A DNA stretch of 64,000 nucleotides, taken from an uncultured Bacilli bacterium. Lineage in GTDB: Bacteria; Bacillota_I; Bacilli_A; RF39; UBA660. The stretch lies in assembly GCA_934096265.1 (NCBI GenBank), contig CAKOLI010000001.1, forward strand, positions 210,896-274,895. Direction: 5' to 3'. Below, piece after piece: positions 9,275-30,331 of this stretch. How positions within the stretch are numbered: position 1 is the first letter of the stretch; every line of letters begins with the position of its first letter. The translations under genes and the position numbers were made by a program. The notes beneath the pieces were generated by a model. That model searched no databases and was not told where the DNA came from. It saw nothing but the letters and a program-made list of their open reading frames with translations.

Positions 9275-9412
9275 TAAATAAGAGTCCTTTTTGGGGCTTT
9301 TATTTATTTTTTTATTTAAAATATTGCTAAATTTGTTTAATTATGATATTATTTATATATAGAGTAGCAAGAGTAGTTTTTGTGTACGTATTTAGAGAGG
9401 ATTATGGTATTT

Positions 9413-11791: not shown

Positions 11792-13576
11792 ATGAAAAAG
11801 GCTTTTGTTTTAATAGGTGTTATTGTAAGTGGATTAATTGCATTATCTTTATATTCTACTTATGCTATGTATGTATCTGTAAGTAATGATATTAATATGT
11901 CTACTTCACTTAGTTATGAATTTAATATAGATAATCAATCTACTTTCAAAATTCCTGCGAATAAGGTATTACATTTTAATGCTATTATTAAAAATCCTTA
12001 TGATGCTTCTTTAAAATATGGTATATATCATACATATACTTCTTCAAATAGTAATGTTATTATAGGAGAAGTAGTTAGTGATAAGAGTAGTGTTACTGTA
12101 GCTCCATCTACTTCTGGAAGTATAGATGCTAATAAGACTATGACTATTCCTATCGCGGTTATAAATAAGACTTCTAGTGAAATTAGTGTTAGTTTTGGTG
12201 TTATATATGGATATATCAATAATGATATTACTTATAGTAGTAACCAAAAGTTAATTACTAGTACGGTAAATAATGAAGATGTATATAATGAAAGTTGTGT
12301 TAATAATTATCAATTTGATGAGAGTACTTGTACTGTTAAGTTAGAAAATGGTAATTTAAATAAGTATTGTAATGTTATGATTGGACAAGAGAAAATAAAA
12401 CCTAATGCTCCAGTCCTAGCAGAAGGCATGATACCAATTAAATGGGATGGTTCTAAGTGGGTTAAAGCAAGTAGTACAAATAGTAATAATGATTGGTATG
12501 ATTATGATACTAAGAAATGGGCAAATGCCGTGATGGTTAGAACAGATAAGGATTCTAATGTTTCTGATTCTAAGTCTAGGGAACAATATATGAGTGCTAT
12601 AGAAGGCACAAAAATATTAGAGAGTGATATATTAGCTTATTATGTATGGATACCAAGATATAGTTATCAGTTATTTAATGTAAATTCGGAAATAATGGAC
12701 CCAATAGAAATACAAGTAGGGTTTGAAAACAAGACAGATACTAAATCTACTGGAAGTACAAATGGTTCTTGGCTTACACATCCTGCGTTTACTTTTGGTA
12801 CTGAAGAGTTATCAGGTATATGGGTAGGCAAGTTTGAAACTAGTGGGACTGCAGATACGCCTACCGTAAAACCTAATCTAAGTTCATTGACAAAGCAAAA
12901 AATATCAACTCAGTTTGTAACAAGTCGAAAATTTGGGACATCAACTTATTTAAATGGTACTGCAGAAATTGATGCTCATATGATGAAGAATACAGAATGG
13001 GGAGCAGTAGCATACTTAAAGCAAAGTAAATATGGATTAGGTCTTACTGATATAGGTAATAATGCATATTTAGCAGATGCCGAGCCATATTATATGGCAG
13101 GATGTGGTCCTTTAAGTGAAACAGATTTAACTGGATATGGTGCTACATGTACAAGCTATATGAGTACAGCAGGAGTAATGTCATCCACAACTGGCAATGT
13201 ATACGGAGTATATGATATGGCAGGAGGAGCATATGAAGATGTAATGGGAGCAATGAAAAATAGTAATGGAACGGGTTTTATATATTCATCTTCTGGATTT
13301 ACTGCAAGTACACTCCCTTTAGGAAGTAAATATATAGATGCATATACATATGGAATATCACAGAGTGATTATACAAGAAGAATATTAGGAGATGCAACAG
13401 GAGAAGTTAGATATTGGTATAAGGATAATTGTAATTTTGTTTCTAATAGTACCTCATGGTTCGAACGTGGAGGCAATACTAAAGGTGGTGTTGGCGCAGG
13501 TGTATTCTACTTTGTCCTATACCCTGGTCTTGCCAACGTTGCCCATTCTTTCCGTTCTGTTTTAACACCTCAATAA
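11792..13576 (+). CDS. Paralog B. Same signal type, TasA-like N-domain and conserved C-terminal domain; no LamG insert.
   Basis: N-terminus MKKAFVLIGVIVSGLIALSLYSTYAMYVSVSND. C-terminal block (WLTHPAFTFGTEELSGIWVGKFETSG...MMKNTEWGAVAYLKQSKYGLG...MAGCGP...FRSVL) about 80% identical to paralogs A and D. Confidence 0.6.
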   Translation: MKKAFVLIGVIVSGLIALSLYSTYAMYVSVSNDINMSTSLSYEFNIDNQSTFKIPANKVLHFNAIIKNPYDASLKYGIYHTYTSSNSNVIIGEVVSDKSSVTVAPSTSGSIDANKTMTIPIAVINKTSSEISVSFGVIYGYINNDITYSSNQKLITSTVNNEDVYNESCVNNYQFDESTCTVKLENGNLNKYCNVMIGQEKIKPNAPVLAEGMIPIKWDGSKWVKASSTNSNNDWYDYDTKKWANAVMVRTDKDSNVSDSKSREQYMSAIEGTKILESDILAYYVWIPRYSYQLFNVNSEIMDPIEIQVGFENKTDTKSTGSTNGSWLTHPAFTFGTEELSGIWVGKFETSGTADTPTVKPNLSSLTKQKISTQFVTSRKFGTSTYLNGTAEIDAHMMKNTEWGAVAYLKQSKYGLGLTDIGNNAYLADAEPYYMAGCGPLSETDLTGYGATCTSYMSTAGVMSSTTGNVYGVYDMAGGAYEDVMGAMKNSNGTGFIYSSSGFTASTLPLGSKYIDAYTYGISQSDYTRRILGDATGEVRYWYKDNCNFVSNSTSWFERGGNTKGGVGAGVFYFVLYPGLANVAHSFRSVLTPQ

Positions 13577-15163: not shown

Positions 15164-15280
15164 TGCATGTTATGTGTATTATTTTTTTATGTAAATTTTT
15201 GTCAATTTAGTGTATTTTTGTTGTTTATAGTTAGATATTTTGATAAAATAAAAAAGTATTAGAAAGAGAGGAATATGTTG

Positions 15281-17914
15281 ATGAAGACTAAGTATGTTTA
15301 TGCTTTTAATGAAGGCAATAAGGATATGCGTGATTTGCTTGGTGGTAAGGGTGCTAATTTAGCTGAGATGACTTCTATCGGGTTACCTGTACCTAGAGGG
15401 TTTACTGTTACTACTTTGGCTTGTACTAAGTATTATGATGATAATGAGGTGCTTAGTGAGGAAGTTAAATCGCAAATATTTGATAAGTTAAAAGAGTTAG
15501 AAAAGGTTACTGGTAAGAAGATGGGGGATTTGGATAACCCATTGTTAGTGTCAGTTAGAAGTGGTGCTAGGGCATCTATGCCTGGGATGATGGATACTGT
15601 TCTTAATTTAGGGTTAAATGATGTTGTGGCAGAGAATTTGGCTGAAGAGACTGATAATAAGCGTTTCGCATATGATTCATATAGAAGATTTATTATGATG
15701 TTTGCGGATGTTGTTAAGGGATATTCTAAGAGTTCTTTTGAGAGGGTTCTTGATAGTTATAAAGAGGAACATAATTATAAGTATGATACTGATTTAGATG
15801 AAGATGATATGTATACTATAACGATGAAGTTTAAGGATATATATAAAGAATTATCTGGTAATGATTTTCCTCAAGATCCTAAGGAGCAATTGATTGAAGC
15901 TGTTACTGCTGTATTTAGAAGTTGGAATAATGAAAGAGCTATTATTTATAGGAGAATGAATGATATTCCAAGTTCTTGGGGTACTGCGGTTAATGTTCAA
16001 GAGATGGTTTATGGTAATAAGGGTGATGATTGTGGTACTGGTGTTGCATTTACTAGGAATCCATCTACTGGGGAAAATAAATTATATGGTGAATATTTGA
16101 TTAATGCTCAAGGAGAGGATGTAGTTGCGGGTGTACGTACTCCACAAGATATATCCACTCTTAAGGATATTATGCCTAGTGTGTATGCTGAGTTTGTTGA
16201 GACTACTAAGATATTGGAACGTCATTATCGTGATATGCAAGATATGGAATTTACTATTGAAAATGGTAAGTTGTTTATGCTTCAAACAAGAAATGGTAAG
16301 AGGACTGCGATGGCAGCATTAAAGATAGCGGTTGATTTATATAATGAGGGTATGATTAGTAAGGAAGAAGCTTTGCTTAAGGTAGAGCCTAAGCAACTTG
16401 ATAGTTTGCTTCATCCTAATTTTGATACTGATGCTTTAGCTAAGTCTAAGGTTATTGCTAAGGGTCTTGCGGCTTCTCCTGGAGCAGGTGCTGGTAAGAT
16501 ATATTTTAATGCTGAGGATGTATCTAGTGCTAAGGCTAGAGGAGAAAAAGTGTTGTTAGTTAGACTTGAAACTTCACCTGAAGATATTCAAGGTATGAGT
16601 GATGCTGAAGGTATTTTGACTGTCCGTGGAGGTATGACTTCACATGCTGCGGTTGTTGCTCGTGGTATGGGTAGATGCTGTGTATGTGGATGTGGAGAGT
16701 TAGTTATTAATGAAGAGGATAAGACTTTAACTACTGCTTCTGGATATATATATCATGAAGGGGACTGTTTATCAATAGATGGGTCTACTGGATATGTATA
16801 TGATGGTTTAGTAGCTACGGTAGAACCTTCTATTAGTGGTAATTTTGAAACGTTTATGTCTTGGGCAGATGAAGTTAGAACACTTGGTGTTAGAACTAAT
16901 GCGGATACTCCAAAGGATGCTATGCAAGCAGTTAAGTTTGGTGCTGAAGGTATTGGGTTATGTCGTACTGAGCATATGTTCTTTGAAGAGGCTAGAATAT
17001 TTAATTTTAGAAGGATGATTGCTGCGGATACTAAGGAGCAAAGGGAAGAAGCTTTATCTAAGATACTTCCTTATCAAAGAGAAGATTTTGAGGGATTATT
17101 TAGAGCTATGCAAGGTAAGCCTGTTACTATTAGGTTCTTAGATCCACCTTTACATGAATTTCTACCTCATACTGATGAAGAAATTAAGCCTCTTGCTGAT
17201 AGCCTTGGAGTTAGTTTTGAGTCTTTGAAGGCAAGAATTGAAGGGTTAAAAGAGTTTAATCCGATGATGGGACATCGTGGTTGTAGGCTTGCAATTACTT
17301 ATCCTGAGATAGCTAAGATGCAAACTAGAGCGGTTATTGAAGCTGCGATTAATGTTGGTAAGGAAGGTTTAGTAGTTGTTCCTGAGATAATGATACCACT
17401 AGTAGGAGAGGTAAAGGAACTTAAGTATGTTAAGAATATTGTTTGTAATGTAGCAGATGCTATAATAAAAGAAGCAGGTGTAGATTTGAAGTATAAGGTT
17501 GGTACTATGATTGAGATACCAAGGGCTGCACTTACAGCGGATGCTATCGCGGAAGAAGCTGAGTTCTTTAGTTTTGGTACTAATGATTTAACTCAAATGA
17601 CTTATGGTTTTTCTAGGGATGATGCTTCTAAGTTCTTAGGAGATTATTATAGCAAGCAAATTCTTGAATCTGATCCTTTTGCTAGGTTGGATCAAGATGG
17701 TGTAGGTAAACTTATTGCTATGGCTGTTTCTAAAGGTAGAGAAACTAGACCTAATATTAAGCTTGGTGTATGTGGAGAACATGGAGGGGATCCTTCATCA
17801 GTAGAGTTCTTTAATAAGTTAGGGCTTGATTATGTATCTTGTTCTCCTTATAGGGTGCCTATTGCAAGGCTTGCAGCGGCTAGGGCTAGAGTATTAGAAA
17901 TGTTAGAAAAATAA
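15281..17914 (+). CDS. ppdK: pyruvate, phosphate dikinase
   Basis: PEP-utilising phosphohistidine region (GGMTSHAAVVARGMG), PPDK N-terminal ATP-grasp, C-terminal PEP/pyruvate domain (FFSFGTNDLTQ). Confidence 0.9.
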   Translation: MKTKYVYAFNEGNKDMRDLLGGKGANLAEMTSIGLPVPRGFTVTTLACTKYYDDNEVLSEEVKSQIFDKLKELEKVTGKKMGDLDNPLLVSVRSGARASMPGMMDTVLNLGLNDVVAENLAEETDNKRFAYDSYRRFIMMFADVVKGYSKSSFERVLDSYKEEHNYKYDTDLDEDDMYTITMKFKDIYKELSGNDFPQDPKEQLIEAVTAVFRSWNNERAIIYRRMNDIPSSWGTAVNVQEMVYGNKGDDCGTGVAFTRNPSTGENKLYGEYLINAQGEDVVAGVRTPQDISTLKDIMPSVYAEFVETTKILERHYRDMQDMEFTIENGKLFMLQTRNGKRTAMAALKIAVDLYNEGMISKEEALLKVEPKQLDSLLHPNFDTDALAKSKVIAKGLAASPGAGAGKIYFNAEDVSSAKARGEKVLLVRLETSPEDIQGMSDAEGILTVRGGMTSHAAVVARGMGRCCVCGCGELVINEEDKTLTTASGYIYHEGDCLSIDGSTGYVYDGLVATVEPSISGNFETFMSWADEVRTLGVRTNADTPKDAMQAVKFGAEGIGLCRTEHMFFEEARIFNFRRMIAADTKEQREEALSKILPYQREDFEGLFRAMQGKPVTIRFLDPPLHEFLPHTDEEIKPLADSLGVSFESLKARIEGLKEFNPMMGHRGCRLAITYPEIAKMQTRAVIEAAINVGKEGLVVVPEIMIPLVGEVKELKYVKNIVCNVADAIIKEAGVDLKYKVGTMIEIPRAALTADAIAEEAEFFSFGTNDLTQMTYGFSRDDASKFLGDYYSKQILESDPFARLDQDGVGKLIAMAVSKGRETRPNIKLGVCGEHGGDPSSVEFFNKLGLDYVSCSPYRVPIARLAAARARVLEMLEK

Positions 17915-18378: not shown

Positions 18379-18678
18379 GTGATATCTATGGATAGTTTAA
18401 GGATTAATTATGATGAAACTATTTCAGTGGGAAATCAAGTGTCAAATAAAGGAGGAGAATTTCAAGACCTTTTGACTAAAATTAAGTCTATTAATTCTGA
18501 ATTGAAGAGTTATTGGGAAGGTAGTGATGCTTCTAAATATGCGTCTGCTGTTGAACAACAATCTGTATATATGCAAGAACTTGCTGATACTATTAATGAA
18601 ATAGGTGGATTTTTAGTAAAAGTTGGGCAAGCATATCGTGAAGCTTGCCAAAATAATGCAAATGCTATTAAAGGTTAG
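18379..18678 (+). CDS. WXG100 family protein (EsxA-like)
   Basis: 99 aa helical hairpin with central W-x-G (YWEGSDA). Confidence 0.8.
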   Translation: MISMDSLRINYDETISVGNQVSNKGGEFQDLLTKIKSINSELKSYWEGSDASKYASAVEQQSVYMQELADTINEIGGFLVKVGQAYREACQNNANAIKG

Positions 18679-18689
18679 GAGGTTAAAAT

Positions 18690-18980
18690 ATGGATTTTTC
18701 TAAATTATCGTATGGTCAAGTCCAATCAATGGCGGAACAATTAAAGACTTCTGCAGATAAAATGGAAACTCTTTTAAGTGAAATTAAGACATTATTTGAT
18801 AAAATTGGAACAGATGATGTTTGGAGTGGAACAGCTGCGGCTGCTACTAAAGAAACATTTGATCAATTGAGTGCTAAATTTCCTGAGTTTTCTCAATCAA
18901 TAAGTGAATGTTCTACATACTTAGTATCTATGGTTGAAAATTATCAATCAGTTGATTCTATGGTTACAGGTGGTAAGTAA
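18690..18980 (+). CDS. WXG100 family protein
   Basis: 96 aa, central WSG (DVWSGTAA). Confidence 0.75.
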   Translation: MDFSKLSYGQVQSMAEQLKTSADKMETLLSEIKTLFDKIGTDDVWSGTAAAATKETFDQLSAKFPEFSQSISECSTYLVSMVENYQSVDSMVTGGK

Positions 18981-19061: not shown

Positions 19062-19355
19062 TTGAATATAGAGATAAATGTTTCAGATGTAGCAAGTTAT
19101 GGGAAACAGATGGTTGAGTGTTCTGGTATGTTTGATGATTCTGTAAAAGAATTTAATGCTTTGATAGATGCTATTAATACTATTTGGGATGGAGCAGATG
19201 CTTTAAAGTATGTAAATACTATGAGAGAGAAATATATTGTTGGGTTAAATGAGCTTAAAGAGTATATGTTAGAATATGGAACTTATTTACAGAAGGTGCC
19301 TGAGAGTTATTCGGCGCTTGATGAAGTGTTTTCATCAAAAAATATAGATGTGTGA
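19062..19355 (+). CDS. WXG100-like protein, possible Lap1-type LXG-effector targeting factor
   Basis: 97 aa, central WDG (TIWDGADA). Its stop overlaps the next gene's start by 4 bp (ATGA). Confidence 0.6.
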   Translation: MNIEINVSDVASYGKQMVECSGMFDDSVKEFNALIDAINTIWDGADALKYVNTMREKYIVGLNELKEYMLEYGTYLQKVPESYSALDEVFSSKNIDV

Positions 19356-19705
19356 GGTGGGGTATGAATATATCATATAGTCAAGTAGAATCACAATGTA
19401 ATCAATTACATGAAACAGCTAAAAAAATGAAGGATATATTAGATATGGTTTCAGAAATAAGAAAGAATGCTTGTAATAGTGCTTCTTGGAATGGAGAGGC
19501 ATCTAATGCATATTCAGAGAAATTAAGTTTGCTGATTGGAAGTTTTGATGAGGCATTTTTAGAGATAGAAAATAGTATTTTGTATATGGCTAGTTGTTCT
19601 TCTGGATATCAAGCATTAGATCAACGGGTAATGCAAGAGATTTGCTCTAATTTAAATATTACCGAACCTAATTTAAGTACGTCTAATATTTTTGGTGTTA
19701 ATTAG
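19352..19705 (+). CDS. WXG100-like protein, possible Lap-type targeting factor
   Basis: 117 aa, central WNG (SWNGEASNA). Translationally coupled to the upstream gene. Confidence 0.6.
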   Translation: MRWGMNISYSQVESQCNQLHETAKKMKDILDMVSEIRKNACNSASWNGEASNAYSEKLSLLIGSFDEAFLEIENSILYMASCSSGYQALDQRVMQEICSNLNITEPNLSTSNIFGVN

Positions 19706-19706
19706 T

Positions 19707-20192
19707 ATGGATTTTGAAAATGTAGATGTACCTAGTTTGGTAAATGCACTTACACAATGCAAAGATTCGATAGATTATAAGGCGTCTTTAGAGTTAATTA
19801 ATGATATATCAAATGTTTCTGTATGGCAATCTTCTTCACAATCAAATTTAAAAAATGCTCTAACGATACTTACCACGAATAGGTATACAGAACTTAAAGA
19901 TAAGATAGATTGTTATTTGACTGTAGCTTCTTATATAGCACAATATCAAAACTTAAGCAAAGAGAATATTCTTTTAAATAAGCAATATAATGATTTGTCT
20001 TATAAATTATATTATGAAGAAGAGTATGAAACTCCTGTTACTTTAGCAGATGGAACTGTAATTAATGAGATAAATACAAGAAAAGTTATGGATAAAAATA
20101 TAAATAATCAAATGAATAATATAAAAAATAAAATAGATAAAAATAAAGAAAAAATGGATGAATTAAAAAAAATAATATATAATTCTATTTAA
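19707..20192 (+). CDS. small helical T7SS-associated protein (possible Lap2/DUF3958-like)
   Basis: About 160 aa, predicted all-helical. Sits between the WXG-like genes and the effector. No specific motif recognised. Confidence 0.35.
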   Translation: MDFENVDVPSLVNALTQCKDSIDYKASLELINDISNVSVWQSSSQSNLKNALTILTTNRYTELKDKIDCYLTVASYIAQYQNLSKENILLNKQYNDLSYKLYYEEEYETPVTLADGTVINEINTRKVMDKNINNQMNNIKNKIDKNKEKMDELKKIIYNSI

Positions 20193-20518: not shown

Positions 20519-23365
20519 ATGAATGATATGTTCAAGATTAATGTTTCATTGTTAAAATCTTATGAAAGTAAATTTAATACAGAATTAAATAGTTTTAATA
20601 ATAAAACTTATGCTACCTTTTCATCTAGTTATTTAAATAGTTGTGCTGATGGTTGTGTTAGTAAGATGGCAAGCCAACTAGAAAAAATATATGAAACAAT
20701 AAAAAAAGGATATACAAATATTGATAAGTGGTGGATTGATTATAATGATAATGCTTCTGGGTTAGAAAATTATTTGTCTGGCAAAGGTAGTCTTGGATCA
20801 ATATCTGAAGCAAGTATTAGGAATAGTGCTAGTCAGTTACCTGAATTAAAAAAATATAATCTTGATTTTGCAGGGATTATTCCTGCTGGTATAGCTGGTG
20901 CAGAATATGGTATGGCGTTTGCTAATAACACGGTAGTATCTAGTGTTGGTACATTTGATACGATAGATTCTGAAGTTCCTTCTTTAGGCTCAGTAATATC
21001 TGATACAGTTGAGAGTGTATTTTCGGGTATTGCTGGTTGGTTTTCGTCTATACCTTGGTTAGAGAATGCCGCTAATTTTTATTGGAATATAATTAAATCT
21101 ACTGGTGCTACTTTGGCAGTTTTTGTTCAATCTTTAATTCAAGGAATAGGTCAGTTTGTAGAAGCAATAGTTGATCTTGTGGCTATTGTTGGTACTGCTG
21201 CTGCATCTATTGTAACTGGATTATGGGATGGTGGCCAAGCTATTTGGGGAGCAATAACTGGTGAAGATTGGGAATCTTTAACAAAAAAAATGTGGAATGG
21301 GACAATGGGGTTTGTTGCAACCCAATATGTTGTAGGTTGGATGGATTTATTATATCAAAATACTGGATATGGTCAATGGTTAGTTGATAATGCCCTAGGT
21401 TTTGATATTGTTAGAGGTATTGGGTCAGGAATAGGATATGTTGCTGGGATAGTAGCTTTAACTATTGCAACATTTGGAGTTGGAGGAGTCGCTGTTGCGG
21501 GAGGTAGTGCGGCCGCTGGAGGTGCTACTGCTGCCGCCGCTGGGAGTGCTACTGCCGCGGGTGGTATTACTATGTCTACTCAATTAGCAATAACTGCCAC
21601 GGCTGCTGGAATAGGAAAGGGCGTACAGAATGCTTGGGCTGATGGTGCAAGTTTAGTTAAAGGATTAATCGCCGGAATACTTAATGGCCTATGGGAAGGA
21701 TTTCAATTTTATATAGGTGGTAAAATTAGTGGCTTGAATATTTTTGGGGGAAAAGGCCTTTTAGAATCAGTAAAGCTTTCAGGTGTAGGTACACAAGTAT
21801 TGAATAGTCTTGGTCGTATAATTTTAGATGGTATTGATGGTGGCGCAGAAGGTTTTGTTACTCCTCTTATTCAGACTATATATAAAGATGGTTATTATGA
21901 TGAGAATGGAGAGTATGTTGAGTTTTCAGATGTTAAGAGTCTTTCTGATGTTTTCGAACGTTATGGTAAAATATTTGAGGAAAATGGTGGCTTTGTAAAT
22001 GTCTTGACGCAAGCTTCTGTTGGTGCAATATCTTCTTTGATAGGGGAACTGTTTGATTTAAGAAAATATTTTGGTAATAAGAAGAGTGAAAGTAAAGTTA
22101 ATATGACATCTGATGAGTTGCAAATAACGCTTGATAAATATAATGAATTAATGGAAATTAAAAATAGTGATGATTATAAGAAATATATGGATTTGAAGAA
22201 TAATAAGTTATTTAAAGGTTCTATGCCAGAGTTTGATGGTGTAGAAAATGAACTTGCATCTATTTCTCTTGAACTAGCGCGTTATAAGTATAATCAATTA
22301 GTAGAAATTAAAAATAGTGATGATTATATTTCGTATATGGATAATGTTAAGAATGGATATAATCAAACTCCAAGACCAGAATTTGATAATATAGAAATGG
22401 AGTTTAAGGCGGTAGAATCTGACTTGGCAAAGATGGTACGACAACAACAATTTAAAATAGAAAAAGATAATGCTTTAAATGAATTTCAAAAAGTGATTAA
22501 AAAGGGCAAAAAGAGTGATAAAGAAGCAATAGACCTTATGTATGAACTTTTTGATACTAGTATTGTAGATGAAAACTGGGATGCCTTGAATGCATTACAG
22601 GCATTTAATAAAGCTAAAGAGAAAAATCCTTCAATACATCTAACTTCACTTGATGGACGAAATTGCTATAGTCCTTATTCTTATTCTATAAATATTAATA
22701 AAGGCAATAAAGTAAAAGAATTTATGGCTCATGAATTAGGTCACTTGTTCCATTTTGAATTACTAGATGAGGTTACTCCTGATAATTTCAATATGCTACT
22801 TGATAATGCGCGAGCTAGTTTATCACCAGATTCAGTAACAAATCAATTTAGTAGTTATTATAATGAAGCTAAAAAAGAGTTTAACGATTTAGCATTAAAT
22901 GATTATTACACTTCTAAATTAGATTCTGATTTTTCTAGATTTTCTAGTATAGAGAATAAATCTCCTTATGTTAATATGACATATGATGAATTTCTAAAAG
23001 CATACACTGAAGACTTTGCAAAAAAACATCCTGAGGTTTCAGTAAGTGATTTAGAATATTTGACTACAAATGATATTAGAATGGATATTTATGCTGTAAA
23101 TACAGAATATATGTATGATAATGGCATTCAAGCACTTTCTGATATTTGTGATGCTTTTTTAAAAGGAAAACTTGATGTTCCAGGTGCACTGGGTCATGGT
23201 GTAGCGTATTATTCTCTTCCTGATGATAGAGAGTTTAAGGAAATGATTGCAAACTTTACTGCAATGAAAATTATGGGAAATAAAAAAACTTTACAAATGA
23301 CAAAAGAAATAATTGGTACATCATTGTATGATGTACTTGATGGTACTTTTAAGCAATTTAAGTAG
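20519..23365 (+). CDS. Large T7SS substrate: LXG-like N-terminal helical domain, glycine-zipper hydrophobic core and C-terminal HEXXH metallopeptidase-like domain (candidate polymorphic toxin)
   Basis: N-terminal about 120 aa helical with L-S-G (YLSGKGSLG). Residues about 120-400 are rich in GxxxG/AxxxG runs (GIGSGIGYVAGIVALTIATFGVGGVAVAGGSAAAGGATAAAAGSATAAGG). The C-terminal region has HELGHLFHFE. Start moved to the ATG after RBS GGAAAGGAG. Confidence 0.55.
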   Translation: MNDMFKINVSLLKSYESKFNTELNSFNNKTYATFSSSYLNSCADGCVSKMASQLEKIYETIKKGYTNIDKWWIDYNDNASGLENYLSGKGSLGSISEASIRNSASQLPELKKYNLDFAGIIPAGIAGAEYGMAFANNTVVSSVGTFDTIDSEVPSLGSVISDTVESVFSGIAGWFSSIPWLENAANFYWNIIKSTGATLAVFVQSLIQGIGQFVEAIVDLVAIVGTAAASIVTGLWDGGQAIWGAITGEDWESLTKKMWNGTMGFVATQYVVGWMDLLYQNTGYGQWLVDNALGFDIVRGIGSGIGYVAGIVALTIATFGVGGVAVAGGSAAAGGATAAAAGSATAAGGITMSTQLAITATAAGIGKGVQNAWADGASLVKGLIAGILNGLWEGFQFYIGGKISGLNIFGGKGLLESVKLSGVGTQVLNSLGRIILDGIDGGAEGFVTPLIQTIYKDGYYDENGEYVEFSDVKSLSDVFERYGKIFEENGGFVNVLTQASVGAISSLIGELFDLRKYFGNKKSESKVNMTSDELQITLDKYNELMEIKNSDDYKKYMDLKNNKLFKGSMPEFDGVENELASISLELARYKYNQLVEIKNSDDYISYMDNVKNGYNQTPRPEFDNIEMEFKAVESDLAKMVRQQQFKIEKDNALNEFQKVIKKGKKSDKEAIDLMYELFDTSIVDENWDALNALQAFNKAKEKNPSIHLTSLDGRNCYSPYSYSININKGNKVKEFMAHELGHLFHFELLDEVTPDNFNMLLDNARASLSPDSVTNQFSSYYNEAKKEFNDLALNDYYTSKLDSDFSRFSSIENKSPYVNMTYDEFLKAYTEDFAKKHPEVSVSDLEYLTTNDIRMDIYAVNTEYMYDNGIQALSDICDAFLKGKLDVPGALGHGVAYYSLPDDREFKEMIANFTAMKIMGNKKTLQMTKEIIGTSLYDVLDGTFKQFK

Positions 23366-23391
23366 GTAATTAAGGAAAGAGATGGTTATAT

Positions 23392-23634
23392 ATGGATGAT
23401 AAAGATAATAGATTGTTATGGAATATTTTGGAAGTTAAATATTTAAAAATGTTTGGTAGAGAGATTAGTTGTGATCCGAATGATAGTTATGACCTTTTTC
23501 CTTTAGGTTGGTATTTGGATATTGATGTTGATACAAAGATTAAAATTTTATTAGAGGCATTAGAGAATAATAAAAAAATAGTAGATACATCTTTATATCA
23601 AGATATGTTGAATGAAAGAGATAAAAGATTATAA
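23392..23634 (+). CDS. candidate immunity protein for the upstream effector (80 aa)
   Basis: Small ORF immediately 3' of the toxin C-terminal domain, the position typical of immunity genes. No homology recognised. Confidence 0.35.
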   Translation: MDDKDNRLLWNILEVKYLKMFGREISCDPNDSYDLFPLGWYLDIDVDTKIKILLEALENNKKIVDTSLYQDMLNERDKRL

Positions 23635-23694: not shown

Positions 23695-26600
23695 ATGCGA
23701 GTTTCAACGATAAGGGCATTAAAAATTAATAATATACTGTTACCAGATAAGATAGAAGGGAATTATTGGATTGATGGTACTGATGATAATGGTATAAAAA
23801 GGAATTTAATATCTATAGAGTCTTATGATGGTAAATGGAGATTAATAAGTAATAAGGAAGTTTATTGTGTAGTAGCTGGGGAGAAGGTTCCATATATTAA
23901 TTTGGAAGAGGGTAAATTTTATTTAGTGGTTAATAGTGTAGCTAAGGAAAATTTATTGTTGTATTGTTCTTCTGTTTTGGCTAGTTATAATTGTTATGAT
24001 ATAGAAGAATTTTTGAAAGATGGAATAACTATTGGTAGTGAACCTAGTAATTTGATTACGTATTCTATTTTAGATTCTTTATGTGCTTGTATTAAATATG
24101 AAAAGGGAAATGTTTTTGTTGTAGATAATAAGTCAAGATGTGGTGTGTATGTAAATGATGTTAGAGTTATAGGAAAAAGGGAGTTAAAAATAGGGGATAT
24201 TATTTTTATTGCTGGTGTGAAGATTATATTTTCTATAAATTCTAAAAAGACTCATTGTATTTATGTTAATGATGGTTCTTTAAATGGAGTGGGTGTGAAA
24301 TTATCAAAAACTGTGGATATGCAAGTAGTTAATAATGATTTTTATGAATTAGAGCAGGAAGTGGAATATCCATTATATGATGAGAAAGATTATTTCCATA
24401 AGGTTCCTAGGTTTTTTCAAAAAGATGAGGCTTTAGTTTTACAAGTTGATCCACCTCCTGCGAAAGTAGATGAAGGGAATAATTCTTTATTATTGACAAT
24501 AGGTCCAATGATAACGATGTCTATGACTTCTTTGGTTACTGGTTATATGGCTTTAAATAATGTTTTAAATGGGGATGCTACTTGGGCTAAAGCGACACCT
24601 TCGTTAGTTATATGTGGCGCGATGTTTGCTAGTGTATTTATATGGCCTATATTTACTAAGTGGTATGATAAGAAAAATAGAATTAAGAATGAGTTGCTTA
24701 GGCAGCAAAAATATAGTGAGTATATAGAAGCTAAGAGGAAGATGATTATAGAAGCTAAAAACCAACAGACGGCAATATTGACAAATAATTATATAAATAT
24801 AAAAGAGGCTGTAGATACTATTTTAAGAAAATATACTGGGTTATGGCAACGTAGGATAGAAGATGATGACTTTTTAGATGTAAATTTGGGATATGGAAGT
24901 TATCCAATGAAAATTGATATTAAGTATCCAGAAGAAAGGTTTTCAATGGTTGAGGATAATCTAAAGGATATGGTATTAAAGTTAGGGCAAGAGCCTAAGT
25001 TGTTGTTAAATGTACCAGTTGTGTTTTCTTTAAGGGAAGCTTTTATAAGTGGTATAATTGGTGGGTATGAAATTAATGAGTTTACTAGAAGGTTGTTAAT
25101 TCAAATACTTGCTTTACATAGTTATGATGATTTGAAAATTGTTTTTTTGACTGATGAAGAAAAAGAATCTGAATGGAAGGTATTTAAACAGGTTCCTCAT
25201 TGCTTTTCTGATGATAAGAGTTTAAGATTTTTCGCGACAAATAATGATGAATATAAAGAGGTTTGTTATTATTTAGATAAGATTTTTGATTATAGAAAAG
25301 AAAAGTCTAATACGGATAGTAAGATAAATAGTTTTAATCAATCTTTTTTAATAGTGACAGATAGTTTTAAGAAGATTAGGAATTTTGATATTATTAAAGA
25401 TATTTTGGAGAGTAAGAAATATTATGGTTTTAGTATTTTGATTTTAGATAATAAGATAACTAATTTGCCTGATCAATGTTCTGATTTTATAAGTTTAAGT
25501 AAGGATAATGGGGAACTTAGAAATAATAAGAATATAACTGAAAGTATTAAATTTTCGGTGGATTTATTATCAAGTGTTGATTATGATGGTTGTGTTAAGG
25601 CATTAGCTAATATTCCAATAGAATTGTCTTTAGATGATGAAAACCAAATTGCCTCTAAGATAGGTTTTTTAGAGATGTATGATGTTGGGAAGATAGAACA
25701 GTTGAATTCTCCGACTAGGTGGGTTAAAAATAATCCAATTTTAAATTTGCAAGTTCCGGTTGGTATTGGTAAAAGTGGGGAAAAGATTACGATTGATTTG
25801 CATGAGAAGTATCATGGTCCACATGGGTTAATTGCTGGTATGACGGGAAGTGGGAAGTCAGAGTTTATTATTACGTATATTTTATCAATGGCTATAAATT
25901 ATCATCCATATGAAGTTCAGTTTATTTTGATTGATTATAAAGGTGGAGGATTAGCGGGGGCTTTTGAGAATAGTAGTACTGGATTAAAGTTACCACATTT
26001 GGTTGGAACTATTACTAATTTGGATGCTAATGAGATAAAGAGGAGTCTTGCTTCTATTGATTTTGAGTTAAAAAGAAGGCAAGCATTATTTAATACTGCA
26101 AGGGAATTTTCTGGAGAGGGTACAATTGATATTTATAAGTATCAAAAGATGTATAGAGATGGTATTGTTAAGGAACCTGTTTCACATTTGTTTATTATAT
26201 GTGATGAGTTTGCAGAATTAAAGAGTCAGCAACCAGAGTTTATGGCACAGTTAATTTCAACAGCACGTATTGGTCGTTCTTTAGGGGTGCATTTGATTTT
26301 AGCTACGCAAAAGCCAAGTGGTGTGGTCGATCCCCAAATATGGAGTAATACAAGATTTAGAGTATGTATGAGGGTGCAAGATAAGTCTGATTCAAATGAG
26401 GTTATTAAATGTCCTGATGCTGCATATTTAAAGCAAACAGGAAGGTTTTATTTTCAAGTAGGGTTTAATGAAGTGTTTTTACTAGGACAAGCTGCTTATG
26501 CTGGTGGGAAATATATTCCATCTGAAAAGGTAACTAAGACAATAGATACAACTATTAATTTTATTGATAATATTGGTTATACGATTAAGAAGGTTGATAC

Positions 26601-28326
26601 TAAGGTTAAAACTGATACTGTAGTTGTGGATATTGGAGAGGAATTAAGTAATATAGTAAAATATTTAGATAATATTGCAAAGGAACAAAATATTAAATGT
26701 AGGCCATTATGGTTGGAGAAGATTCCAGAGGATATTAGAATAGAGAATTTGGCTTTAAAATATAAATATGAGAAAGAAGAATATATAATTAATCCAATTA
26801 TTGGGGAATATGATATACCTTCAAGGCAAGAACAAGCTTTGTTAACTTTGCCATTATCAAAAGAGGGTAATGCATTGATTTATGGTTCTTCAGGAAGTGG
26901 TAAAGAAAACTTTATTACAACATTGCTTTATTCATCTAGTATGTATTATTCACCAGAAGAGGTAAATTATTATGTAGTTGATTTTGGTTCTGAAGTTTTA
27001 AGGATGTTTAATGATTATCCAATTGTAGGTGATATATTAGATTCAGATGATGAAGAGAAAATTAAAAATTTATATAAGATGTTAAACGCGACGATTGAAG
27101 AGAGAAAGATTTTATTTTCTGAATATAATGGAGATTATTATACTTATTGTAAGAATAATGGTAAGGCTATTCCAAGTATTGTAGTAGTTATAAATAATTA
27201 TGAGTCATATCAAGAAACATATCCAGAGTTTGATGATATGCTTATTGTATTATCAAGGGAGTGTAATAAATATGGTATATTCTTTGTGCTTACTGTTAAT
27301 ACTCCGAATGGGTTACGTTTTAAGTTAAGACAAAATTTTTCGTTAACATATGTATTGCAACAAAATAGTAATGATGATTATACAACTATTTTAGGTAATG
27401 TATATAAAAATTATCCTGCAAAGATTTTTGGTAGAGGGATTTTTAAGACGGATGATGTATATGAATTTCAAACTGCTTTGGTAAGTGATAAGGATAATAT
27501 TATTAAATATGTAAAAGATAAGAAAAATGAGTTAAAGAATAAATATTCTACTATGGCTAAGCGAATTCCTGTTTTGCCTAATGTTGTGGATTATTCTTCA
27601 ATATATAAAGATTTTGGTAAGTCATCATCTTTAATTATTGGTATTGATAAATCTTCTTTGAAAATATGTAAATTTGATTTTAATAAAAATTATTTAACTA
27701 TAATTTCAATGTTGGATTTAACTGCAAGTAGTAATTTTTTAAATCCATTTATAAATCAAATTATTGCTAATAATAATTCAATGTTATTTGTTATAAATGC
27801 TTCTGATGACGAGATAGATGATAAGTATAAATCACAATATCAGTATGTTGATCATCAATTTAATGAGGTTTTTGTTAATTTATTAAATTTTGTGAAAGAG
27901 CAATATGATGGTTATGTTAAAAATGATTATAATAAGAATATTTTTAATAATATGAGGAAGGTATATTGTATTATAATAGGGATTGATTCTTTTAAGATGC
28001 GTCTTAATGATGATAACAAGAGTAAATTTGCTGATTTATTTATAAACGGTAAGGATTTAGGTATAATTAGTTTTATAATTGTAGATAGTATTGATCAGAT
28101 TAGAAAGGTAGAGATGGAATCTTGGTATAAAAATTGTGTTAATAACAATTTTGGTATTTGGATAGGTAATGGTATAAATGATCAGTTTAGTTTGAGGATA
28201 AGTCAAAAGATTGAAGAGATGAAAGAAGATGTTCCGAATAATTTCTGTTTTGTAATTAAACGCGGTAGGGTTCAATATGTAAAATTCGTTGAAAAATTAG
28301 AGTTAGATATTAAAAGTAATGAGTAA
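23695..28326 (+). CDS. essC: T7SS FtsK/SpoIIIE-family ATPase EssC/YukBA
   Basis: 1543 aa. N-terminal FHA-like region, 2 TM segments (about aa 270-320), three P-loop ATPase domains (GMTGSGKSE; LILATQKPSGVVD; degenerate GSSGSGKEN). Confidence 0.9.
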   Translation: MRVSTIRALKINNILLPDKIEGNYWIDGTDDNGIKRNLISIESYDGKWRLISNKEVYCVVAGEKVPYINLEEGKFYLVVNSVAKENLLLYCSSVLASYNCYDIEEFLKDGITIGSEPSNLITYSILDSLCACIKYEKGNVFVVDNKSRCGVYVNDVRVIGKRELKIGDIIFIAGVKIIFSINSKKTHCIYVNDGSLNGVGVKLSKTVDMQVVNNDFYELEQEVEYPLYDEKDYFHKVPRFFQKDEALVLQVDPPPAKVDEGNNSLLLTIGPMITMSMTSLVTGYMALNNVLNGDATWAKATPSLVICGAMFASVFIWPIFTKWYDKKNRIKNELLRQQKYSEYIEAKRKMIIEAKNQQTAILTNNYINIKEAVDTILRKYTGLWQRRIEDDDFLDVNLGYGSYPMKIDIKYPEERFSMVEDNLKDMVLKLGQEPKLLLNVPVVFSLREAFISGIIGGYEINEFTRRLLIQILALHSYDDLKIVFLTDEEKESEWKVFKQVPHCFSDDKSLRFFATNNDEYKEVCYYLDKIFDYRKEKSNTDSKINSFNQSFLIVTDSFKKIRNFDIIKDILESKKYYGFSILILDNKITNLPDQCSDFISLSKDNGELRNNKNITESIKFSVDLLSSVDYDGCVKALANIPIELSLDDENQIASKIGFLEMYDVGKIEQLNSPTRWVKNNPILNLQVPVGIGKSGEKITIDLHEKYHGPHGLIAGMTGSGKSEFIITYILSMAINYHPYEVQFILIDYKGGGLAGAFENSSTGLKLPHLVGTITNLDANEIKRSLASIDFELKRRQALFNTAREFSGEGTIDIYKYQKMYRDGIVKEPVSHLFIICDEFAELKSQQPEFMAQLISTARIGRSLGVHLILATQKPSGVVDPQIWSNTRFRVCMRVQDKSDSNEVIKCPDAAYLKQTGRFYFQVGFNEVFLLGQAAYAGGKYIPSEKVTKTIDTTINFIDNIGYTIKKVDTKVKTDTVVVDIGEELSNIVKYLDNIAKEQNIKCRPLWLEKIPEDIRIENLALKYKYEKEEYIINPIIGEYDIPSRQEQALLTLPLSKEGNALIYGSSGSGKENFITTLLYSSSMYYSPEEVNYYVVDFGSEVLRMFNDYPIVGDILDSDDEEKIKNLYKMLNATIEERKILFSEYNGDYYTYCKNNGKAIPSIVVVINNYESYQETYPEFDDMLIVLSRECNKYGIFFVLTVNTPNGLRFKLRQNFSLTYVLQQNSNDDYTTILGNVYKNYPAKIFGRGIFKTDDVYEFQTALVSDKDNIIKYVKDKKNELKNKYSTMAKRIPVLPNVVDYSSIYKDFGKSSSLIIGIDKSSLKICKFDFNKNYLTIISMLDLTASSNFLNPFINQIIANNNSMLFVINASDDEIDDKYKSQYQYVDHQFNEVFVNLLNFVKEQYDGYVKNDYNKNIFNNMRKVYCIIIGIDSFKMRLNDDNKSKFADLFINGKDLGIISFIIVDSIDQIRKVEMESWYKNCVNNNFGIWIGNGINDQFSLRISQKIEEMKEDVPNNFCFVIKRGRVQYVKFVEKLELDIKSNE

Positions 28327-28377: not shown

Positions 28378-28437
28378 ATAGGGGAGTAGAAATAATGTTA
28401 ATTATTTGATATAATGTTTATAGTAGGAGTGATTGAT

Positions 28438-28983
28438 ATGGATAATGTTTTGCTAATTATTATAATAATTTTGATATCATTAGGAGTATTTTGTTTAATT
28501 AAGTCAGTATGTAAGCCTATAAGTACATTGACGGCTGTTTTGCTTGTCATACCAACGGTGTTAACATGTGGGGTTGTGCTGTTTATTTATAGGGCTTTTA
28601 AGAATAGTTATGTGTCTACTTCAAGTAATATTTCTAGTAGTAATAAGTATTCAACTGATTTTTATGATGTTAATGATAATAGTATGGGTAGTGAAGATAA
28701 GAAGCCCGCTAGGGCATATGATGATGGCTTCGGTAAGACTACTTATTATGATAAGGAAGGTAATTTGATGGGGGCTTCTTTAGATAATGGGTTTGGTAAG
28801 GAGACATTTACGGATAGTGAAGGTAATTATGTGGGTAGTACTTTTGATAATGGTCTTGGAAGTACTACGTATACAGGTAAAGATGGGAAGGTAGTTTTTA
28901 GTAATACTAATTATTTAGGGGATGAGAATTTTTCTGATGGAACAGTATCTAGGAAGGATTCTTCTTCTAAGTATTATTCTTAG
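28438..28983 (+). CDS. membrane-anchored protein with three about 20-aa (D/N)NGFGK-T(T/F)Y-D-EGN repeats
   Basis: Two N-terminal TM helices, then DDGFGKTTYYDKEGNLMGAS / LDNGFGKETFTDSEGNYVGST / FDNGLGSTTYTGKDGKVVFSN. Core-like codon usage. Extended -10 TGATATAAT at 28408-28416. Confidence 0.5.
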   Translation: MDNVLLIIIIILISLGVFCLIKSVCKPISTLTAVLLVIPTVLTCGVVLFIYRAFKNSYVSTSSNISSSNKYSTDFYDVNDNSMGSEDKKPARAYDDGFGKTTYYDKEGNLMGASLDNGFGKETFTDSEGNYVGSTFDNGLGSTTYTGKDGKVVFSNTNYLGDENFSDGTVSRKDSSSKYYS

Positions 28984-29366: not shown

Positions 29367-29431
29367 AATATTTTGCTTTTCTTTTTATAAGTATTATTGT
29401 ATAATTGTTATAGGAGTAGGAAGGTGTTTTG

Positions 29432-30331
29432 ATGAAGGTATTATGTATAGGGCATTGTGCATATGATATAACGGTGGTTACTGATATGTATCCTTGTGAG
29501 GGGGATAAGTATCGTGTTAGTTCTAAGGTTGAGTGTGGTGGTGGTCCTGCGTCTAACGCGGCTTATTTGTTAGGTAAGTGGGGCGTTGATACTTATATGG
29601 CAGGAGTAGTTGGTAATGATATTTATGGTAAGAAGATTAGGGATGAGTTTAGTGATGTTAATGTTAATACTAATTATTTAGAGTTGTCTAATAAGTATAA
29701 TACGACTAGTAATTTTATTGTTGTTAATAGGAAGAGTGGTACTAGGACGATATTTACTTATCGTAATCCTAGGATGAAGATTAGTGATATTAACATTAGT
29801 ATTAAGCCTGATTTTATTTTGTGTGATGCTGAGGAGTTGGATTTGTCTTTGAAGGTAATTAAGAAGTATCCTAAGGCGGTATCTGTAATGGATGCTTCAA
29901 GGGCAAGGTATGCTTCTATAAAGCTTGGTAAGGTAGTAGACTATTTGATTGTGTCACAGAGTTTTGCAGAGGAGTTTACTGGTTGTAAGATTGTTTCTAG
30001 TGATATGAATACGATTAGTAAGGTGTATAATTTGCTAGAGGATAGTTTTAAGAATAATATTGTTATTACTTTGGGTAGTGATGGTTGCGTTTTTAAGAAT
30101 GATGATATGATTAGTTTAATGCCATCTTATAAGGTTTCTGCTTGTGATACTGCTTGTGCGGGGGATTTCTTTCATGGGGCTTTTATGTATGGGCTTATAA
30201 ATAAGTATAAGTATGCTGATATTATGAGGCTTTGTAATATTACTGGGGCACTTTCTACTAAGGTTTTAGGTGGTAGGACGTCTACTCCTAAAAAGGAAGA
30301 GGTGCTAAGGATATATGAGAAGAGTAGATGA
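29432..30331 (+). CDS. PfkB-family carbohydrate kinase (ribokinase-like)
   Basis: N-terminal GG motif region (ECGGGPASNAAY). C-terminal DTACAGDFFHGAF (DTxGAGD) signature. Confidence 0.7.
   Translation: MKVLCIGHCAYDITVVTDMYPCEGDKYRVSSKVECGGGPASNAAYLLGKWGVDTYMAGVVGNDIYGKKIRDEFSDVNVNTNYLELSNKYNTTSNFIVVNRKSGTRTIFTYRNPRMKISDINISIKPDFILCDAEELDLSLKVIKKYPKAVSVMDASRARYASIKLGKVVDYLIVSQSFAEEFTGCKIVSSDMNTISKVYNLLEDSFKNNIVITLGSDGCVFKNDDMISLMPSYKVSACDTACAGDFFHGAFMYGLINKYKYADIMRLCNITGALSTKVLGGRTSTPKKEEVLRIYEKSR

Follow-up and report, generated by a model that had tools for sequence, protein, structure and literature searches.

TelA and TelB of Streptococcus intermedius, with their LXG, Lap and Ltc components, are the closest described counterparts of the system reported here, with which they share an operon logic and a three-part architecture (PMC12478183, PMC10801868). 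DUF4176 (Ltc) proteins are toxin-specific chaperones that bind the middle, pre-toxin region of toxins secreted by type VIIb systems (T7SSb) and remain in the cytoplasm (PMC12478183, PMC12482557). A membrane-translocation role has been suggested, speculatively, for this middle region, as has the shielding of hydrophobic helices by DUF4176 proteins of the small class, and how cytoplasm-acting T7SSb toxins cross the target membrane is a stated open question (PMC12478183). Zincin toxin domains of polymorphic toxins, including those delivered by a type VII secretion system (T7SS), are an established category (PMC3482391). Here we analyze a 64,000-nucleotide stretch (the window) from an uncultured Bacilli bacterium of the RF39 lineage (GCA_934096265.1, contig CAKOLI010000001.1, positions 210,896 to 274,895) and, within it, the gene for a 948-aa protein. 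We read this protein as a polymorphic antibacterial toxin exported by an adjacent minimal T7SSb. It would be built of four parts (an N-terminal helical hairpin, a Gly/Ala-rich hydrophobic module, a charged repeat linker and a zincin-like C-terminal domain), with an 80-aa protein as its cognate immunity protein, and we place the probability of this reading at about 0.7. Polymorphic toxins of T7SSb form a known kind, and there are earlier descriptions of both zincin warheads and DUF4176 chaperones; the warhead here falls in the known class of zincin toxin domains but in no described family.

The order of genes is as in the TelA/TelB systems, where small helical partners are followed by genes for DUF4176, toxin and immunity in a T7SSb locus that includes EssC. 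Immunity is likewise soluble, which implies a cytoplasmic target. There are also differences. The window toxin has no PF04740 match and its LxG is not conserved; its DUF4176 protein is of the small class (93 aa) in the position usual for a large Ltc; its middle region spans ~380 aa and is conserved, hydrophobic and Gly-rich, whereas that of TelA is short, disordered and amphipathic; and the locus is without EssA, EssB and EsaA. TspA, TelD and TelE resemble the window toxin in their hydrophobic Gly-rich helices and their association with small DUF4176 proteins. Their hydrophobic domain, however, is the C-terminal warhead and is countered by a membrane immunity protein such as DUF443, while the module in the window is internal and conserved and comes with variable enzymatic warheads and a soluble immunity protein (grand average of hydropathicity (GRAVY) -0.54, isoelectric point 4.6); the comparison is one of described features. 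Chaperone-shielded hydrophobic helices are also known from the prePAAR/transmembrane-domain effectors of type VI secretion systems with their Eag chaperones (Tse6, Rhs effectors), where insertion in the target membrane and passage of the toxin have been proposed. The window toxin may be analogous in having such helices in its delivery part and a dedicated cytoplasmic chaperone, but the secretion systems and protein families are unrelated, and the module in the window, which is much larger, follows the targeting domain instead of being located at it. As for the warhead, the M34 zincins (anthrax lethal factor, PPEP-1/2/3), Tox-ALF-metallopeptidase and Tox-MPTase (PMC3482391) are not recovered here by Pfam, whose ATLF, M34 and Tox-MPTase models gave no match to the C-terminal domain, and a helical insertion of ~150 residues separates its HExxH from an H/Y/E cluster, which sets it apart from M34.

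An earlier prediction made from the sequence alone (the original prediction) had named the 948-aa open reading frame (ORF), its HELGH motif and an 80-aa ORF downstream, and all three are borne out. The ribosome-binding site GGAAAGGAG lies 7 nt 5' of the ATG at 20519, and all full-length homologues begin at the corresponding point (P0001 has 948 aa and 100% coverage). HELGH occupies residues 738-742 and is the sole HExxH of the protein, which lacks a signal peptide at its N-terminus. Pfam and NCBIfam assigned the full toxin to no family. Searches of PDB sequences (phmmer and profile, with the full toxin, its N-terminus, its N-terminal part together with the module, and its C-terminal domain) returned noise only, and tblastn gave no match among annotated plasmids and phages. 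The features of the operon and the parts of the toxin are collected in Table 1.

Table 1. Operon genes and toxin parts, in window positions, with the evidence used to assign them.
Feature	Positions	Strand	Remarks
Pyruvate-phosphate dikinase (PPDK)	15275-17914	+	5' boundary of operon
YukD/EsaB-like small ubiquitin-fold protein, 84 aa	18115..18369	+	First operon gene; weak ubiquitin-like (UBL) Pfam match
Two canonical WXG100 proteins (99 aa, WEG; 96 aa, WSG)	18379..18980	+	EsxA/EsxB-like pair; PF06013 7.8e-11, 1.8e-11
Two further WXG100-type proteins (97 aa, 117 aa)	19062..19705	+	Weak PF06013 (3.3e-4, 2.1e-4); faint DUF3130 match
166-aa helical protein	19692..20192	+	No Pfam/NCBIfam match
Small DUF4176 protein, 93 aa	20206..20487	+	PF13780 5.2e-29; ends 31 nt 5' of toxin gene
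948-aa toxin gene	20519..23365	+	ATG start at 20519; ORF open from 20501
N-terminal helical hairpin, toxin residues 1-110	20519..20848	+	Presumed T7SS targeting domain; AlphaFold2 model
Gly/Ala-rich hydrophobic helical module, toxin residues 145-520	20951..22078	+	Conservation, hydropathy, AlphaFold2 model
Charged linker, toxin residues 531-639	22109..22435	+	Two ~48-aa tandem repeats, 51% identical, E 7e-14
Zincin-like metallopeptidase toxin domain, toxin residues 640-948 + stop	22436..23365	+	HELGH at nt 22730-22744; H893, Y897, E908
80-aa acidic soluble protein, predicted cognate immunity	23392..23634	+	Starts 27 nt after toxin stop
EssC, FHA-bearing FtsK/SpoIIIE-type T7SSb ATPase	23695..28326	+	TIGR03928 1.6e-294, PF01580, PF00498
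PfkB kinase	29429-30331	+	3' boundary of operon

The case for a polymorphic toxin begins with its relatives. A search of 5.8 billion proteins yielded 115 homologues, and BLAST comparison places residues 1 to ~520-590 in common among them at 40-60% identity, with C-termini that differ. An ADP-ribosyltransferase (PF03496) is present in roughly half of the 115 and an HD, transglutaminase, PF17914 or dockerin domain in others, and 20 have an HExxH domain that is 23-31% identical to the C-terminus of the query. The repeat linker is present in ADP-ribosyltransferase-type homologues too. Between the window and the related locus L003, the shared N-terminal part of the toxin is 52% identical and EssC 80%, and the metagenome-assembled genome (MAG) CAKOMH01 holds two copies of the module-bearing gene on separate contigs (L014, L017). 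The toxin matched no EsaA or EssB profile and no EsaA or EssB fold. We also note one double warhead, P0059 (L024:4133-8548, 1471 aa), which combines an ADP-ribosyltransferase with the HExxH domain.

The small gene downstream follows the warhead. A homologue of the 80-aa protein (33-98% identity; ~75-120 aa, mostly 75-80) sits directly 3' of the HExxH toxin at all ten loci examined (the window, L001, L003, L007, L023, L024, L025, L026, L028 and L030), and this holds even for L026 and L030, whose HExxH toxins have different N-termini. L026 encodes two tandem toxins with a common type of N-terminus that lacks the scaffold and module; only the HExxH toxin (E 8.7e-84) is followed by a 77-aa homologue, and the other by an unrelated 125-aa ORF. 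Toxins with another warhead have an unrelated gene in this place. At L005, for example, the ADP-ribosyltransferase variant precedes an unrelated 83-aa ORF and a gene for an ADP-ribosylglycohydrolase (PF03747), the classic form of antidote to a toxin of this activity. The double-warhead P0059 precedes both a 77-aa homologue and a second, unrelated 99-aa ORF; the latter was considered as an ADP-ribosyltransferase immunity gene akin to the 83-aa ORF of L005 and rejected, as the two are unrelated. Such co-variation with the HExxH domain, whatever the N-terminus, is how cognate immunity ordinarily shows itself in genomes, so the proposal that the 80-aa ORF encodes an immunity protein has held up on strong genomic evidence, with binding and neutralization as its predicted mode of action. 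The 80-aa protein has no Pfam or NCBIfam family, and by sequence its family is new.

The C-terminal domain was examined in a set of 119 near-full-length domain sequences, one per 50%-identity cluster. E739, H742 and E908 are present in all 119, H738 and H893 in 118, and Y897 in 116. The HEXXH motif is therefore not fortuitous, as its near-invariance is matched by that of H893, Y897 and E908, which supply candidates for further ligands. An AlphaFold2 (AF2) model of the domain (predicted local distance difference test (pLDDT) 92, predicted template modeling score 0.88) puts HELGH on a helix that spans domain residues 94-110 and comes straight after the strands at 68-72, 77-79 and 84-88; a three-stranded sheet directly before the HExxH helix is the zincin arrangement. 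E908 also lies in a helix, 166 residues from HExxH, an atypical spacing. By analogy with M34 enzymes, E908 would be the likely third zinc ligand, with Y897 assisting. Comparison of the domain with individual structures gave modest similarity to PPEP-2 (7.7; 131), the lethal factor-like domain of Certhrax (7.4; 138), anthrax lethal factor (7.3; 147), PPEP-3 (7.1; 135) and MtfA (6.8; 143), and Foldseek returned no match to the PDB at E<0.4. Weak Pfam matches were to Peptidase_M78 (best 1.8e-4, in 4 of 14 members) and DUF6782 (7e-4, in one member). As judged from conservation and predicted fold, this is a genuine, previously unnamed zincin-like family.

This family extends well beyond the toxins of the present type. 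A profile built from 14 sequences and searched against 1.84 billion proteins, as 50%-identity cluster representatives, retrieved 582 representatives at E<=1e-3 and 120 at E<=1e-30. The N-terminal scaffold is present in about one-quarter of the best 144 new representatives listed; the remainder of those listed begin differently, in some cases with WXG-like motifs in the N-terminus, and measure between ~110 and 3700 aa. The domain is usually C-terminal and sometimes mid-protein, and Pfam found no LXG, Rhs or other delivery domain in 35 diverse members. Five large proteins of ~2200-3100 aa (P0117, P0121, P0137, P0143, P0148) carry it mid-protein (~residues 1290-1665) and have Ser/Asn/Gly-rich low-complexity N-terminal regions. 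Three giant HExxH proteins, P0117 included, gave no PHROGs match, and P0117 and P0143 gave no Pfam match.

At the other end of the toxin, AF2 predicts a hairpin of helices 9-34 and 45-86, with mean pLDDT of ~63-83 in 10-residue blocks over residues 11-110. Its conserved features include a TFSSSYL turn and WW at 71-72, and F19, T33, Y38, W71, W72, Y75 and E83 are invariant. The expectation that this N-terminus is LXG-like was not borne out: PF04740 and PF06013 gave no match at E<=0.1 with the full toxin or at E<=1 with the query and 18 homologous N-termini, hhalign against the locus's own WXG100 profile gave a probability of 2.3%, and a profile search of PDB sequences with the N-terminus found no LXG, Lap or Esx chain. 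Nor is the L-S-G of YLSGKGSLG (residues 85-93) a motif of the family, as L86 is nearly invariant and position 88 is D, N, G or Q, with homologues typically reading LSDNG. One subfamily has the hairpin replaced by a segment of ~57-75 aa. At L012 and L018, whose toxins are without the N-terminal domain (residues 1-140), both further WXG100-type genes and the 166-aa gene are absent. This joint absence supports the 97-aa, 117-aa and 166-aa proteins as hairpin-specific partners, and we regard the two WXG100-type proteins as candidate Lap-like targeting partners of the toxin N-terminus.

Between hairpin and linker lies the best-conserved part of the family, a module (residues 145-520) that maintains 40-60% identity across different warheads, has many invariant Gly, Trp and acidic positions, and is retained even where the hairpin is replaced. 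It has no Pfam relative and no relative among PDB sequences. Gly makes up 19% of residues 186-450, as against 9% of the whole toxin; stretches 205-238 and 297-332 are strongly hydrophobic and transmembrane (TM)-like (Kyte-Doolittle up to 2.15); residues 301-350 contain no charge, and the chain is hydrophilic from ~450 onward. AF2 draws long helices (pLDDT 70-84) with low confidence at 112-185 and 319-350, Gly/Ala-rich between helices. A glycine-zipper core had been proposed here, and this holds in part: the Gly/Ala richness, the hydrophobicity and one conserved zipper (G382-x3-G386-x3-G390) are found, but GxxxG periodicity is not above that of composition-matched shuffles. Within residues 186-450, GxxxG occurs 12 times versus 9.5+/-2.5 in shuffles, GxxxGxxxG three times versus 1.8, and [GAS]xxxGxxx[GAS] 11 times versus 6.9, a count reached by 161 of 2000 shuffles.

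What points to a function for the module is its neighbor. Of the 20 loci that could be assessed, 19 have a DUF4176 gene beside the module-bearing gene, some of them with the hairpin replaced, and the 93-aa protein is, by analogy, predicted to be a toxin-specific chaperone of the Ltc family. From this adjacency and the published biology of DUF4176, we read the module as a chaperoned pre-toxin region and possibly a membrane-insertion module. Translocation of the warhead into the target cytoplasm would be its likeliest role, a tentative assignment that we hold at clearly less than even odds. The stronger version, in which the module is a self-contained membrane-translocation device for interchangeable warheads (zincin, ADP-ribosyltransferase, HD and others), we consider somewhat doubtful. 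The module might additionally help the toxin to cross the producer's own membrane in a T7SS without EsaA, EssA and EssB.

The surrounding operon is repeated, in the same gene order, at related loci. The YukD-like gene (35-100% identity) adjoins EssC or WXG genes there, the WxG motif of the canonical WXG100 pair is kept in orthologues, and orthologues of the 166-aa gene (36-89% identity) hold the same position and co-occur with the toxin N-terminal domain. A C-terminal YxxxD/E is kept in every orthologue examined of the 97-aa and 117-aa proteins, six for each (loci include L003, L005, L007, L023 and L024), and it recalls known T7SS export signals. No EssA, EssB or EsaA was found in the locus between PPDK and PfkB, which suggests a pared-down T7SSb in reduced-genome gut bacteria of the Bacilli/Mycoplasmatota type. 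Two adjacent, signal-anchored upstream paralogues (799 aa, 9380-11779; 594 aa, 11792-13576) have a common C-terminal domain (…GIWVGKFETSG…HMMKNTEWGAVAYL…) and belong to no Pfam or NCBIfam family; they were considered as EsaA/EssB analogues and rejected, being paralogous surface proteins with housekeeping genes between them and the operon. After EssC, a 189-aa protein (28414-28983) combines TM segments at its N-terminus with repeats of a D-N-G-F/L-G-x-x-T motif. It was weighed as a membrane immunity protein or an EssA analogue and set aside, as no related T7SS locus has a homologue.

Several related loci contain genes of further interest. A 250-aa Ser/Thr kinase is encoded directly 5' of EssC at L003:14177-14929, L005:12208-12960 and L024:9241-9999, and a 241-aa kinase follows the immunity gene at L007:11145-11870, where EssC lies 5' of the WXG genes. 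In the L005 kinase the catalytic motifs (HCDLKPDN, DFG) are intact. No homologue of the kinases of L003, L005, L007 and L024 is encoded in the window. A kinase beside an FHA-bearing EssC hints at phospho-regulation of secretion. Also in L005, an ADP-ribosyltransferase-type locus, a 304-aa protein encoded after EssC (L005:17663-18577) has HEIGH and is another possible zincin.

The relatives come from MAGs labeled uncultured Bacilli, 'Tenericutes', Mycoplasma sp. CAG:956 or Candidatus Faecisoma, the last of which NCBI assigns to Mycoplasmatota incertae sedis. The organism has a cell wall, because the window encodes PcsB-type peptidoglycan hydrolases. Its chromosome is low in GC (~30%), and all genes near the operon are on the + strand; across the whole window, nearly all long ORFs are on that strand, and GC skew is strong and uniform (~0.3-0.55 in 2-kb windows). 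A promoter/terminator scan found 84 elements against 75 expected and is uninformative in such AT-rich DNA. A literature search for T7SS in RF39 gave nothing relevant.

Taken as a pathway, the toxin would act as follows. In the producer, the DUF4176 chaperone probably keeps the module soluble, while the WXG100-type YxxxD/E proteins and the 166-aa protein presumably bind the hairpin and present it to EssC. After export, the module would most likely insert in the target-cell membrane and help the C-terminal domain into the cytoplasm, where the zincin domain would cleave its target. Zinc would be held by H738 and H742 and, probably, by E908 as a third ligand, and E739 would serve as catalytic base with help from Y897 and H893. 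The 80-aa protein would neutralize the domain in the producer and its kin.

Several points weigh against this account. The hairpin is presumably the T7SS targeting domain, an assignment made from context, as the hidden Markov models for LXG and WXG100 and hhalign all fail on it. EssA, EssB and EsaA were not found in the locus that would export the toxin. At L026, DUF4176 stands beside toxins without the module, so the pairing of the two is not exclusive. In M34 enzymes, 40-45 residues separate HExxH from the Glu ligand, and the 166 residues seen here are far more. The role of the module in translocation is inferred only, and the producer organisms are uncultured.

Other explanations of the same protein can be judged largely by what the module and the warhead each vary with. 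The original prediction paired a pore-forming toxic core with a peptidase, and in its dual-toxin form the module would be a membrane-depolarizing pore former of the TspA/TelD/TelE type and the C-terminal enzyme a second warhead. The TM-like stretches 205-238 and 297-332, the conserved GxxxGxxxG at 382-390, the enrichment of small DUF4176 proteins near membrane-toxin systems (PMC12478183) and the double-warhead precedent of P0059 are in its favor. Yet the module is the part that stays constant, common to toxins with ADP-ribosyltransferase, HD, transglutaminase and other C-termini, and no locus has a conserved DUF443-type membrane immunity gene. The sole gene that co-varies with the warhead is the soluble 80-aa protein, the 189-aa TM protein encoded behind EssC has no homologue at related loci, and GxxxG periodicity does not exceed composition. 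The toxic core originally proposed is thus contradicted by its conservation and by the missing membrane immunity gene, and a dual toxin is unlikely. The same hydrophobic stretch could instead hold the toxin in the producer membrane after export and display it for contact-dependent delivery, with no insertion in the target. Segment 303-332 is an uncharged, classical TM-like helix, the charged repeat linker could serve as a stalk, and T7SSb antagonism has been described as contact-dependent (PMC12478183). An anchored toxin would, even so, have to get into the cytoplasm of the target, its site of action as implied by a soluble immunity protein, and a dedicated cytoplasmic chaperone suggests that the module is kept off the producer membrane before export; we find a surface anchor quite unlikely.

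The remaining explanations remove the toxin altogether. The HExxH domain could be a peptidase for processing or release, or it could be an effector against host or phage, with the 80-aa protein as regulator or chaperone. Its mid-protein position in proteins of 2000-3100 aa, and its presence in many proteins with ankyrin-like or otherwise unrelated N-termini, are consistent with this, and zincin releasing peptidases do occur in other polymorphic toxin systems (PMC3482391). Against it, the domain fills the same slot as the ADP-ribosyltransferase and other warheads, it is tightly linked to a dedicated, immunity-like small partner, and there is no further domain downstream for it to release. A non-toxin role is, to us, very unlikely. 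It had also been suggested that the protein is a structural T7SS membrane component replacing EsaA, EssA or EssB, with the C-terminal domain as an accessory. A module-bearing gene is indeed present in essentially every related T7SS locus, and the three missing subunits leave a place to be filled. This suggestion is contradicted by C-termini that are polymorphic, each with a matching immunity gene, by an N-terminal part that diverges faster than EssC, by the two copies in CAKOMH01 (the available L017 sequence is without an EssC or DUF4176 match), and by the lack of any EsaA/EssB profile or fold match. These observations together rule out a structural subunit of the EsaA/EssB type in practice, and we give it hardly any weight.

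A polymorphic antibacterial toxin thus remains our preferred reading, and what it contributes lies mostly in its delivery part. The N-terminal hairpin and hydrophobic module form a delivery scaffold that LXG and WXG100 profiles do not see, and the scaffold marks out a toxin family without annotation, with over 100 clusters among uncultured gut bacteria of the Bacilli/Mycoplasmatota type. The large unnamed zincin-like family (582 clusters at 50% identity), together with the new family of ~80-aa inhibitors, may be of use for peptidase and inhibitor biology. The pared-down locus without EsaA, EssA and EssB bears on the composition of a minimal export machine. The module itself, being large, conserved and accessible to experiment, is a candidate for the target-entry step of cytoplasm-acting T7SSb toxins; if it is indeed a translocation device, it would explain concretely, by a region defined in sequence, the entry of T7SSb toxins into target cells.

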